A DNA stretch of 64,000 nucleotides from Eledone cirrhosa. Taxonomy: Eukaryota. The notes below the pieces were generated by a model. That model saw only the letters and a program-made list of their open reading frames with translations, ran no database searches and had not been told where the DNA came from. Positions 13,122-54,930 of this stretch are shown in pieces; positions within the stretch are counted from its first letter, which is position 1; each line of letters starts with the position of its first letter. A program made the position numbers and the translations under genes. The DNA lies in contig OZ024757.1 of assembly GCA_964016885.1 (NCBI GenBank), positions 32,240,001 to 32,304,000 of the forward strand. The letters are read 5' to 3'.

Positions 13122-13300
13122 ATGTTGACGGGCGTGAGAATGTGTACTCAATACTGAAGTAGAGTTCAATGTTCTTTATTATGGTTAACTAATGAGTTAC
13201 TCTGGAGTTTCACAAGATCATCAAGACAATGATGTCTTATTTGAATATATTGAGTACACAGGGGAAACTCCAGAGTAACTTAACTTATTATTTAACCATA
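13122..13300 (-). mobile_element. HHR-bearing Penelope-like element remnant, family C
   Basis: Minus strand reads (T)TGATGA-TCTTG-T-GAAA-CTC-CA-GAG-TA, then AATAAA, then TATTGAGTAC. A partial inverted copy follows. Relatives at about 42843-42940 and 49482-49600. Confidence 0.6.
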
Positions 13301-13399
13301 AACATCCCAACTTACTTTTCATATGGATTTGAACTGATTGTGATGTAAACAAATTCAATCTAAAGATTTGATTTCTGTGTTGACTGGTAAAATGACAAG

Positions 13400-13823
13400 T
13401 CAGTCAACCATATTGATGGTCGCCCCGGCGGACAGAATGGAGAAGGCGTTTCCCCGGAGGACGGCAAGGGAGACGCGCTGGAAGAGCCATTCCAACTCGC
13501 GAGGCTCACACCTGCTGCTGGCCAGCTCAGCTCCTATGGTGGTGAGTAGGGAGGTAGCCCTAGGGCCGAGGACACCAGAAGTCTCCACTGCCAAGGGGAC
13601 GAGAGCGACCGGTATTTGGAGAGTTTGACCTTCTCACCCCCGAACGTGCAGCAGAACCTGGGTTAGTCTCATACTGCACCGGGTTGCGGCTGGTGCAAGT
13701 GGCATCCCAGACGAGGGGTTTTCCACCGCGGAACGGGAAGATGGTCATGCCGTCTGGCCTTTTGCCGTCCCCTCGCTCCAGCCCCACCGGCTCGAGCTGG
13801 GAAGGGAAGCCTGCAGCGTCCAA
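13400..13823 (-). mobile_element. CRE-like non-LTR retrotransposon, RLE domain remnant (frameshifted)
   Basis: [34 protein letters not shown] followed by [10 protein letters not shown]...WLFQRVSLAVLRGNAFSI, a PD..D restriction-like endonuclease signature typical of CRE-clade elements. Confidence 0.88.
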
Positions 13824-14822
13824 GCCATTTCATTTTCCAAAACCCAAAGTTTCGTCAGTCAGCCATTTGGACGTTGGTTGTTCCTTCGAATCGCATCAAA
13901 CCGAACCCGACGGAAGCCCAACACGTGTAATTAACATGAGAAAAAAAGATGGAAAAAGCCCCTCAAAACATCCCAATTATTGCTCCATTTTCCCAAACCC
14001 CAAGTTTGGCCACCCAGCAAGGAATATAGTAGAATAAGGCAGAATACCTTCGAGGAAAGAATAGTAACCAGGATGACATTGTATTGAGTTACCTACGACA
14101 TATTAGATGACAAAATTAGCTTGGTTAAGCACATAGAGATGACATATAAAAAATGGAAGTGGAAAAATATTATTATAAGTATTAGTAATAATAAGGTTGG
14201 TGATGGCGGTGGTATGGTTGTTGGTGGTGATGGTGGTTGGTAGTGGTGATGGTTGGTGGTGATGGTTGGTGGTGATGGTGGTTGGTGATGGTGGTTGGTA
14301 GTGATGGTTGGTGGTGGTGGTGTTTGGTGGTGGTTGGTAGTGATGGTTGGTGGTGGTGGTGGTTGGTGGTGGTGATTGTGGTGGTGGTGGTAGTGATGCT
14401 TGGTGGTAGTGGTTGTTGTGGTGGTGGCGCTGGATGGTGGTTGTGCCTTTGGGGATAGTTGTGGTGGTGGTGGTGGTAGTAGTGGTGGTGGCTGCAGCTG
14501 TGGTAGTGGTCGCTATAGTAATAGAAGCCGTAGTGGTGGCAGTAGTTGAGTTTGTGTTGTAGGTAATAGTAGTAACAGTAGTAGTAGTAATAATAATGGT
14601 GTTGGTAGCAGCAGTGTTAGTGATGGTAGTATTAGTGGTAGTAGTATTATTATTATTATTATTATTAGTAGTAGTAGTAGTATTAGTAGTAGCAGTGGTG
14701 TTAGTAGTATTAGTGGTAGTAGTAGATAATCCAATCTTGACAGTGACATCTACTTCAAATAGTTTGTTGGATTCCCTCAAAAAGCTAAAGATTTAGTTTT
14801 AACCCTCCGCCATTCACCGTCT

Positions 14823-53300: not shown

Positions 53301-53434
53301 GGGCTTATACCCGAAACGTCGTCCTCCACCCCCACTCTCAAGCGTGAAACTAATAACATTTGTACTGCCTCTGCGCTTCCACGTTTTCTTGTTTTCTGTT
53401 TACTGTCTCAACTTAAAATATATATATTCAAAAT

Positions 53435-53929
53435 TAAATTAAATTAATTTAAGGGTGTCATGTCAGAGAGACGTGCGCCATATCCACTGTAGAATATGCT
53501 CCAAGATTCCAATGAATAGATCCGAGCATTTTATATCAACTAGAAATTGATTGTCATATATATATATCTAAAATAAACATATAAAACAATCACAGGGAAT
53601 AATTTGTAAAAGTGTGTAAGCACACATAGCTATGTTGGTAACTAATTAAAGTTTAACTCGAACTTTAAAGATTAATCCATTTATAAGGTATCTATTTTTA
53701 AAGTTCTAGTTAAACTTTAATTAGTTACCTACATAGCTATGTGTGCTGACACACTTTTACAAATTATTCCCTGTGATTGTTTTATATGTTTATTTTAGAT
53801 ATATATATATGACAATCAATTTCTAGTTGATATAAAATGCTCGGATCTATTCATTGGAATCTTGGAGCATATTCTACAGTGGATATGGCGCACGTCTCTC
53901 TGACATGACACCCTTAAATTAATTTAATT
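53435..53929. repeat. Long inverted repeat with arms of about 233 bp and a spacer of about 27 bp
   Basis: Arms nearly identical, with only a few mismatches seen by eye. Confidence 0.93.
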
Positions 53930-54756
53930 TCAATTTCTAGTTGATATATATATAGGTTATAGATTCCATACATTGGTGGTTTTTCCTTGTTTTATTGATA
54001 GCGCACTGTATCTCTCTCTAGTGTGTTACCTTTTCAACATATTGTATTTTAAAGTGCTCAGGATTTCCTCTCCTTTGAGCACATTATTTATAGGGAACGG
54101 CGAGAGTCTATGGCTCCGTTAATGTATCGTGATATATATATATATATATATATATATATATATATATATTGAGTTAGAAACTCAAAATAGTCTTTTACAA
54201 TTAAAAATAGCTCAGAGAAGGGCATCTTTCCGAGCCGTTTAATATAATTGGATATATGAGATGGATGAACACAGATATAACTATACATGTGTTCCAATTG
54301 CAAATGACCAAGTTAGCTAGCTTGAAAAATACTAACTTAATACAATATGGTTTACCTGACTCGATTTAACATAATAAATCAATAAAAATAACAAACCTAT
54401 ATCGGGCAAATAGGCTATGATACCCGGATATATATATATAGTATAAAAGAGAAAACACAGGTAAGTATTAAGAGAAGGATTTTATCCAGGTATTTACGAC
54501 CGTTTCATTGGTAAGTGCAACCTTATATTGCCATACTGCAAATAGCAGCCACTCAATTATAATTGTTGCCCACAGCCCAAATTTTCAAAATAGTGAGTAA
54601 GTTACTCTTGAAATCCGTACGTTAAAATCATCCATGAAACTGGCTTTCTTAACCACAAACTGGATCACAATAAGCAATTTTCTGCTTCCCTAACTATATA
54701 TATATATATATATATATATATATATATATATATATATATATATATATATATATGTT

Positions 54757-54930
54757 TATCCCGGGTTCAATCGGGGTTAACCACAGTAAGTAAGGTACTC
54801 AATATATACCAGAGAATAATTATTTAATAGAGAAATTTAAACTAGGGTTGCTTCATTCGGAGAAAATCATCAGAGCTTACCTGATGATTTCCTCCGAATG
54901 AAACAGTTCTAGTCATGTAGAAGCCATTTA
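54757..54930 (-). mobile_element. Family B element with fold-back HHR
   Basis: Homologous to 42346-42490. Contains an inverted pair of CTGATGA-T-TT..GAA-T-GAA cores at about 54845-54875 (-) and 54881-54925 (+). Confidence 0.75.

Follow-up and report, generated by a model that had tools for sequence, protein, structure and literature searches.

A duplicated predicted RNA hairpin beside the two insertion ends of Hydra-clade Penelope-like elements in Eledone cirrhosa

The stretch of Eledone cirrhosa DNA analyzed here (GenBank assembly GCA_964016885.1, contig OZ024757.1, positions 32,240,001 to 32,304,000; 64,000 nucleotides, hereafter "the window") carries hammerhead ribozyme repeats. An initial annotation had noted that three of their families (A, B, and C) share a 10-nt box about 40 nt downstream of the ribozyme cleavage site. 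We find that the box is real and positioned, and that it makes up the 3′ side of a bulged RNA hairpin predicted to take the form RCUC-stem-loop-NN-GAGY-RC. The hairpin is usually duplicated in the leaders of Hydra-clade Penelope-like elements (PLEs), and insertions of these elements into (TA)n mostly end 0 to 10 nt 5′ of hairpin 1 (the short end) or hairpin 2 (the long end). Covariation within the hairpin, its duplication, the register of insertion ends with each copy, the TA at the junctions, and the union of long and short arms in fold-back insertions were all observed directly.

The conserved box and its hairpin

Eleven exact copies of the box occur in the window, compared with 0.32 ± 0.57 in shuffled sequence, and the excess is gone when one mismatch is tolerated (16 versus 11.1). 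The genome-wide positional enrichment that had been proposed as a check is pronounced: in the host's own 3.0-Gb genome, the hammerhead-plus-box pattern GAAAC..GTH..N34-48..TATTGAGTAC has 56,679 matches, compared with 33 for the reversed control. The boxes first reported lie where they were placed (42743-42752 on the forward strand; 42387-42396, 54795-54804, and 13144-13153 on the reverse), as does the variant near 36835, which reads TATCGAGTAC at 36835-36844 (+). The distances from the cleavage triplet were also accurate, at 41 nt (GUC, 42701), 38 nt (GUA, 42435), and 44 nt (GUA, 13198). The distance from box to element end, given as 25 to 45 nt, came close to our reading of about 48 nt in family A, 43 nt in family B, and 22 to 24 nt in family C. 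Seven further exact boxes (at 13248, 38399, 46772, 47190, 55584, 55907, and 58178) and two variants (at 35067 and 42865) had been missed. Many window copies are incomplete: those of family A retain only the 3′ half of the ribozyme, the 5′ half being missing or swapped for an inverted arm; the arm bearing the box at 54795 is without its GAAAC..GUA half; and the ribozyme copy cut at 13198 has a damaged core (TTGATGA).

The description of the three families as dissimilar holds for the sequence outside the box, where local alignment scores of 22 to 25 do not exceed shuffle maxima of 26 to 31 and the flanks cannot be aligned. It does not extend to descent. The predicted proteins of families A and B are 49% identical, and in a tree built without an outgroup or named references, the six host open reading frames (ORFs) form a single branch (support, 99) among 44 metagenome ORFs. 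Because of these relationships, the box appears to reflect shared ancestry, maintained by selection while the flanks diverged.

Ahead of the box, families A, B, and C have ACTC and a short inverted repeat, so that the RNA is predicted to form ACUC-stem-loop-stem-UU-GAGU-AC with family-specific loops. Relatives from other aquatic sources carry TTGAGCAC paired with GCTC in place of the host 10-mer, which thus appears to be the host lineage's version of hairpin 1. The proposal of a conserved cis signal therefore stands in part. The signal occupies a fixed place downstream of the ribozyme and is tied to the reverse transcriptase (RT)/endonuclease step, but what is conserved is a base-paired hairpin rather than a linear box.

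A 48-protein alignment, used to search metagenome contigs, gave 77 loci at 35 to 43% identity. In the 70 cases where the leader extends 60 nt or more ahead of the ORF, GCTC..GAGC-NC occurs in 66 and is present in at least two copies in 42 (shuffles, 1.9; antisense strand, 11); counted by family, at least one hairpin is found in 42 of 46 and at least two in 27 of 46. When the bulge is set to 2 nt, Watson-Crick pairing at the first upper position is seen in 66 of 69 family-level hairpins (45 C-G and 21 U-A, compared with a mean of 37.7 after permutation), and at the three positions that follow in 42, 36, and 30 (permuted, 20, 17.5, and 19). No such excess is seen with any other bulge length. For hairpin 1 alone, the upper pairs form in 33, 25, 18, and 19 of 34 cases, versus 17, 11, 9, and 10 after permutation. 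RNAalifold returns the fold unprompted, and 0 of 500 shuffles reach the observed covariation pair score; the alignment behind both results (A2) includes one mis-cut row (L040:2017-2050), which is the sole unpaired row at each basal pair. Outside that search, substitutions that preserve pairing are also found in the basal stem: compared with GCUC/GAGC of the metagenome set, there are ACUC/GAGU (host), GCAC/GUGC (family B hairpin 2), and GUUC/GAAC (one host family). Alignment A3, which omits the mis-cut row, supplied the 36 non-host hairpins for a covariance model (R1). The top seven matches of this model in the window are family A boxes, with copies of families B, C, and D following at weaker E-values. 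Rfam covariance models gave no match at E ≤ 10 over L059:7500-7900, a segment of family A-type sequence containing both hairpins.

Family D has no TATTGAGTAC, yet a hairpin lies just beyond its short end (5,728 genome matches versus 0 for the control). This hairpin was predicted beforehand and then found, although the first letters of the stem in the related family D2 had been visible earlier. Family D consequently fails as a negative control, as it carries the hairpin. Some further host sequences were noted in passing. One family (L109 and L272) has the GUUC/GAAC basal stem with the same UU bulge and a short end 4 nt before the stem, and L264, L265, L271, L246, and L095 represent additional families with one or two hairpins, for which ORFs were not found. 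Loci L219-L238 (G000:C1:14,235,000-14,253,000) form a tandem satellite whose 58-bp unit is an A-like hairpin 1 after a TATATAT run.

Hydra-clade elements and their two ends

The initial annotation had suggested looking for the box in autonomous Penelope-like elements, and by their coding content, families A and B are themselves the 3′ ends of such elements, belonging to the Hydra clade. Longer family A copies extend upstream into endonuclease and RT, and copies with an intact ORF occur in head-to-tail tandems with a unit of 3,542 bp; family B likewise precedes a full ORF, which has the same 3′ end. The predicted proteins (716 aa after Met in A, 713 aa in B) consist of an RT, with YRDD at 347 in both, followed by a C-terminal GIY-YIG endonuclease, with YIG at 605 (A) and 602 (B). 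The RWK motif appears as a conservative RWR at 36 (A) and 38 (B), and DKT replaces DKG at 116 in both. Three cysteine motifs are present: CxCx5C in the linker (CNCPDRSIC at 571 in A, CNCLNKEAC at 566 in B) and, in the endonuclease, CxxC (CNLC at 669, CDLC at 666) and CxH (CKH at 697, CMH at 694). The CCHH motif is absent, as expected of the Hydra clade, and family A has a single Cys between VIY and YIG. A Pfam scan of the family A protein assigned no family; its predicted structure has a mean confidence (pLDDT) of 89 and a fold closest to that of TERT (Z = 17.8; root-mean-square deviation, 4.4; 332 aligned; residues 1 to 482).

These features agree with the Hydra clade as characterized in the available text of PMC8557442: a single RT plus GIY-YIG ORF with RW[KR], DKT, CxCx5C, CxxC, and CxH, a type I hammerhead, (TA)n targets, and tandem and inverted copies. 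In the host, a type I hammerhead core with stems is predicted in full copies of families A, B, and C (in C at 442 places in the genome), and insertions into (TA)n, partial tandems, and inverted 5′-truncated copies are all present. The family A unit, at 3.5 kb, exceeds the usual <3 kb owing to its long untranslated region (UTR), but size is a tendency of the clade and not diagnostic (PMC8557442, as available). Host families D, E, and G are likewise linked to Hydra-type ORFs; for family D, a Hydra-type endonuclease lies about 1.1 kb upstream in 3 of 10 loci. At L168, a locus recovered with the family A alignment, the ribozyme and its flanks are those listed for Penelope-1_NV. For family C, no ORF could be assigned. 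An endonuclease upstream of L071 was considered and rejected, the C ribozyme being downstream in only 1 of 16 loci. A view of family C as the 3′ UTR belonging to the non-LTR-like fragment upstream of 13224 was rejected too, since no other C copy examined has that fragment. Viral contigs, when searched, held no relatives of these elements, and among the best 150 of 372 Rfam matches in the window, which are microsatellite-driven microRNA and small nucleolar RNA hits, there is no hammerhead.

Several features of individual families deserve mention. The full family A hammerhead (L059:7760-7850 on the reverse strand; also L002 and L008) has a very long stem II and the U3-A8 core variant UUGAnAA, a variant that has been described in Schistosoma PLEs (PMC4209133). 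Family G (window 54435-54696; L127) has both hairpins and GAAAC..GUA, with no recognizable CUGAnGA core upstream. The family B UTR (L124, L137, and L026) contains a long TA/TG microsatellite and, about 160 nt past the stop codon, a second TATTGAGTAC without a matching 5′ arm.

Insertion ends (+n, counted from the hammerhead cut site) keep register with the hairpins even though the spacing between the two copies varies from 57 to 132 nt among families. For family A, 68 of 108 matches in 0.92 Mb of host loci end in TA-type repeat, 29 of them at +20/21, 37 at +97 to +103, and 2 elsewhere, so that 2 clusters out of 17 TA positions are used; the hairpins start at +26 and +104, and the true long junction is +100, as BLAST overruns into TA microhomology. 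In family A tandems, the sequence passes this usual end into hairpin 2 and then reaches the start codon. The widest spacing, 132 nt, occurs in family G (hairpins at +60 and +192), where 21 of 22 TA ends fall at +53 to +61 or +189 to +191. Ends are at +40 and +90 to +99 in family C (hairpins at about +44 and +107), at +14 to +28 and mostly +92 to +94 in family B (hairpins at +28 and +102), and, for the short end of family E, at +39 (hairpin at +44). Among 30 metagenome end rows, not all of which are independent families, 21 repeat-copy ends are −1 to 8 nt from a hairpin, versus 20% expected for any TA (p = 6e-9). The element end tracks the next hairpin downstream, not the upstream box. Loose (TA)n ends at +100 and +20 in run X5, possibly from the same source as the assembly, are consistent with these positions but not independent of them. 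Five ribozyme calls (other types or mis-parsed), two overlapping hairpin calls, and the satellite loci were dropped before counting.

Fold-back insertions combine the two ends. Of 83 examined, 63 were classifiable: 61 join a long and a short arm, 2 join two long arms, and none joins two short arms. In the window and ten neighboring 10-kb stretches, which were not chosen by motif, 15 of 16 classifiable pairs (22 in total) are long plus short. The apexes are near-perfect palindromes clustered at −37 to −44 in family A and −39 to −45 in family B. With regard to ribozyme-cut RNA as the template, 5′ truncations show no pile-up at the cut site. As a side observation, apexes at −33 to −45 from the cut in families A, B, C, and E give long arms of about 134 to 143 nt; families D and G differ. 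A further, abundant hammerhead family, K (window 58463-58633; L048, L024, L058, and L297), appears to be a non-coding tandem unit with two fixed ends, both followed by a different short motif resembling GCCG-T-ACTAA.

How the hairpins could set the ends

We consider it probable that the RT binds each hairpin copy and begins cDNA synthesis a few bases 5′ of that copy, using nicked (TA)n as the primer. Such starts would explain the one-sided "tail" of Penelope insertions. The protein would bind the conserved basal stem and bulge, probably via its telomerase-like N-terminal region, and the endonuclease would nick both strands of the TA repeat. The UA immediately 5′ of each hairpin would pair with a target 3′ end, one end using hairpin 2 and the other hairpin 1, perhaps with the involvement of two subunits, and the two complementary DNAs (cDNAs) would be joined back to back. 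The interval between the two starts would then constitute the tail and would hold hairpin 1, hence the box. Hairpin 2 would never be copied at that end, which would account for its being seen only in tandem or 5′-complete copies. A more specific arrangement, which we put forward tentatively and rate below the general proposal, is a duplicated portable start signal in which the two hairpins each dock one subunit of an RT-endonuclease dimer, both nicked ends being primed on the same transcript.

Several observations weigh against this reading of the hairpins. Some concern the ends: 9 of the 30 metagenome ends are away from any hairpin, family B short ends are scattered over +14 to +28, hairpin 2 of family C, known from a single locus, L250, is about 10 nt away from the end, none of 21 pattern matches to hairpin 2 of family E is a tandem junction, and family K has fixed ends with the RCUC/GAGY hairpin in 0 of 6. 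Most host loci were picked with box-containing patterns, which would hide short-plus-short pairs. In addition, fold-back arms usually overlap in RNA coordinates, so that a single RNA could supply the two arms only with strand displacement. Other points concern the fold. Single hairpins are thermodynamically weak (z, −0.3 to −2.5), and in the whole family A leader the 5′ arm of hairpin 1 is predicted to pair with the 3′ arm of hairpin 2, which leaves hairpin 1 itself a pairing probability of 0.02; the corresponding value for family B is 0.23 to 0.37. Covariation at the first upper pair of hairpin 2 alone is not significant (33 versus 31), hairpin 2 of family B is without an upper stem, and constancy of the basal stem in the metagenome set is partly built in, since the search demanded RCTC/GAGY. 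G-U pairs outnumber A-C pairs by only 16 to 10 (p = 0.16), and the acting strand is therefore not fixed by wobble bias. The RNA evidence, one run at a 0.06 share and one 200-nt contig, is uninformative.

The best-surviving alternative, which we nevertheless regard as unlikely, is that each event has one true RNA priming site, after which the cDNA folds back and primes itself, the second arm being resolved by the endonuclease at a DNA point marked by hairpin 1. The overlap of the arms and the near-perfect palindromic apex at which they meet fit this explanation, and wobble bias does not exclude the cDNA strand. Arkhipova et al. interpret palindromes as self-priming, the available text of Craig et al. 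assigns the tail to endonuclease-mediated resolution (PMC8557442), and the Penelope endonuclease required tail sequence, as cited in the accessible part of PMC11167929. However, direct copies that have the ORF upstream (L203, L145, L146, L210, and L181, and, for family G, L113 and L116) also stop at the short site. Moreover, hairpin 2 marks the long end though it is missing from the DNA product, and therefore at least hairpin 2 would act in RNA. In vitro, the PLE Poseidon_Ac initiates reverse transcription at both sites, according to the portion of PMC11167929 available.

Less likely again is a role for the hairpins in translation or stability of the uncapped, ribozyme-cut RNA, for example as elements resembling an internal ribosome entry site or in packaging, with priming next to them arising only from exposure of A/U-rich flanks by bound protein. 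Both copies are found after the cut site and ahead of the start codon, the flanks are A/U-rich, and hairpin 2 in the metagenome set starts a median of 47 nt (range, 37 to 74) before ORF residue 1. In the host, though, the distance to the ATG (about 86 nt in family A, 34 nt in family B) is looser than the distance to the end, and the ends ignore most other TA sites, as the two clusters of family A illustrate.

We consider it very improbable that the box is a double-stranded DNA site, whether a promoter element or an endonuclease recognition sequence. The 10-mer is near-invariant across host families A, B, and C, and internal promoters are possible in pseudo-LTRs (PMC8557442, in the part available), but its letters change pairwise, keeping base-pairing across a variable loop, and the fold persists without the 10-mer in families D, E, and G as well as in the relatives from metagenomes; the promoter and 3′-processing roles suggested in the initial annotation gained no support. 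Finally, neutral shared ancestry or chance is scarcely credible, for although the host families descend from a common ancestor, the hairpin is kept beside unalignable flanks and among proteins just 35 to 43% identical, and the leader, pairing, and end counts, with their covariation and fixed register, already contradict it.

Window features and relation to known systems

Coordinates of the hairpins and element copies are collected in Table 1.

Table 1. Hairpins and PLE-related copies in the window
Feature	Position	Strand	Remark
Family A hairpin 1, ACUC-UACU-loop-AGUA-UU-GAGU-AC	42727..42752	+	Box = final 10 nt; match to non-host-trained model, E = 0.003
Family A long arm: hammerhead 3′ half (cut 42701), hairpin 1, long-site end (+100) in (TA)n	42667..42800	+	
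Family A inverted short arm	42606..42670	-	End at +20, 5 nt before hairpin 1
Family B hairpin 1, ACUC-UGC-UAU-GUA-UU-GAGU-AC	42387..42407	-	
Family B copy, 5′-truncated, long-site end	42344..42573	-	Complete hammerhead core 42435-42473; ORF link via L124, L125
Family B fold-back	54756..54933	.	Long arm on - (box 54795-54804), short arm on +
Family C hairpin 1, ACUC-UAC-UUCA-GUA-UU-GAGU-AC	13144..13165	-	Model match weak, E = 3.4
Family C copy: damaged hammerhead, cut 13198, hairpin 1	13120..13224	-	End in TG/TA repeat
Box in rearranged inverted piece adjoining family C copy	13248..13257	+	
Family C hairpin 1, UUCG loop	42865..42886	-	One substitution (TATTAAGTAC)
Family A hairpin 1 variant TATCGAGTAC	36819..36844	+	UC bulge
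Family A hairpin 1	38383..38408	+	
Family A hairpin 1	46772..46797	-	In fold-back 46719-46896
Family A hairpin 1	47174..47199	+	In fold-back 47075-47251
Family A hairpin 1	55584..55609	-	
Family A hairpin 1	55907..55932	-	In fold-back 55855-56057
Family A hairpin 1	58178..58203	-	In fold-back 58126-58327
Family A fold-back, older	35033..35210	.	Variant box 35067-35076
Family D hairpin 1, ACUC-CAG..CUG-UA-GAGU-GC	59787..59813	-	Fold without the 10-mer; in long+short fold-back
Family D2 hairpin 1	45429..45452	-	
Family G fold-back	54435..54696	.	Short arm stops before hairpin 1 (+60), long arm before hairpin 2 (+189)
Family E 3′ fragment: GIY-YIG endonuclease C terminus, hammerhead 41555-41586	41517..42073	-	Short end +39

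The window also contains features outside these families. A broken ORF at 13416-14100 (-), containing WLFQRVSLAVLRGNA, has no Pfam match and is unrelated to family C; we take it to be the restriction-like endonuclease end of a non-LTR retrotransposon. An intronless ORF of 628 aa at 4158-6044 (+) has BTB and weak BACK domains, and a 6.8-kb tandem array at 14823-21670 has a unit of 86 to 88 bp that is about 96% identical. A dispersed family of about 190 bp resembling short interspersed nuclear elements occurs at 1174-1361, 10015-10208, 27864-28062, 32420-32617, 40634-40793, and 44907-45100, and long palindromes of 541 and 238 bp lie at 53418-53953 and 49848-50085, outside the named families.

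By their motifs, the elements belong to the Hydra clade and are in no way unusual there; what is new is a previously unannotated duplicated RNA element. In the available text of the paper on the clade (PMC8557442), only the ribozyme is annotated, and "hairpin" and "stem-loop" occur 0 times in the supplement text. By eye, the published consensus ends of Hydra-1_Ajap, Hydra-2_Ajap, and Hydra-2_Amil that we could access nonetheless contain the hairpin, and the Hydra-1_Ajap consensus has both copies, starting 2 nt before hairpin 1. We did not find a twin hairpin described in the papers searched, although subscription papers, Repbase notes, or supplementary figures could hold one; for the exact box string, all of the literature matches listed were unrelated. 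Metazoan non-LTR retrozymes, as presented in the portion of bioRxiv 10.64898/2026.07.22.740005 available, share a type I hammerhead in PLE-derived terminal sequence, but they are non-coding tandem units, whereas A and B are truncated ends of elements that run upstream into coding PLEs.

The closest experimental parallel is Poseidon_Ac, for which the accessible part of PMC11167929 reports cleavage of A/T-rich DNA, extension of both target strands, and two internal RT starts downstream of the hammerhead that bound the tail. The first start lies 85 to 92 nt past the cut, and long ends here are mostly at +90 to +130. Poseidon_Ac belongs to a different PLE clade, however; its tail is 30 to 40 nt, compared with a spacing of 57 to 132 nt here, initiation is assigned to an AC-rich stem loop, and a duplicated conserved signal 3′ of each start is not described in that part of the source. 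In stringent long interspersed nuclear elements (LINEs) such as ZfL2 (PMC4176376) and UnaL2 (PMC1636434), as far as the text available covers them, an RT-bound small stem-loop likewise chooses the template, with the stem general and the loop family-specific (PMC4176376). That stem-loop is single, lies near the RNA 3′ end, and is copied into the insertion (PMC4176376, in the part available). The hairpins here are two internal copies in a GIY-YIG PLE, unlike the ORF2-bound structure of an APE-type LINE, and the one adjacent to a start lies 3′ of it, uncopied. The template boundary element of telomerase RNA halts copying and is on the 5′ side of the template. Our hairpins differ in being on the 3′ side, where they would set the start of copying rather than its stop. 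What telomerase shares with our proposal, in the available text of PMC11206666, is an RNA element that neighbors an internal template and positions a TERT-like protein on it, together with priming by short repeat pairing.

How PLEs choose internal starts and acquire a one-sided tail has been a long-standing question since the class was described, and the 2024 in vitro work, in the part of PMC11167929 available, gave two start sites and no signal setting them. Being short, covarying, and duplicated, with a constant position relative to both ends, the hairpin allows the origin of the PLE tail to be tested directly by mutation, and it offers curators a boundary marker for Hydra elements. If the twin hairpins do dock a dimer, this would explain the tail, mirror-image insertions, and partial tandems in one step, and any RNA given the hairpin could be copied from a chosen internal base. 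Telomerase has the PLE reverse transcriptases as its sister group, so an RNA element by which an internal template is positioned, as the hairpin may do here, bears on the origin of template definition.

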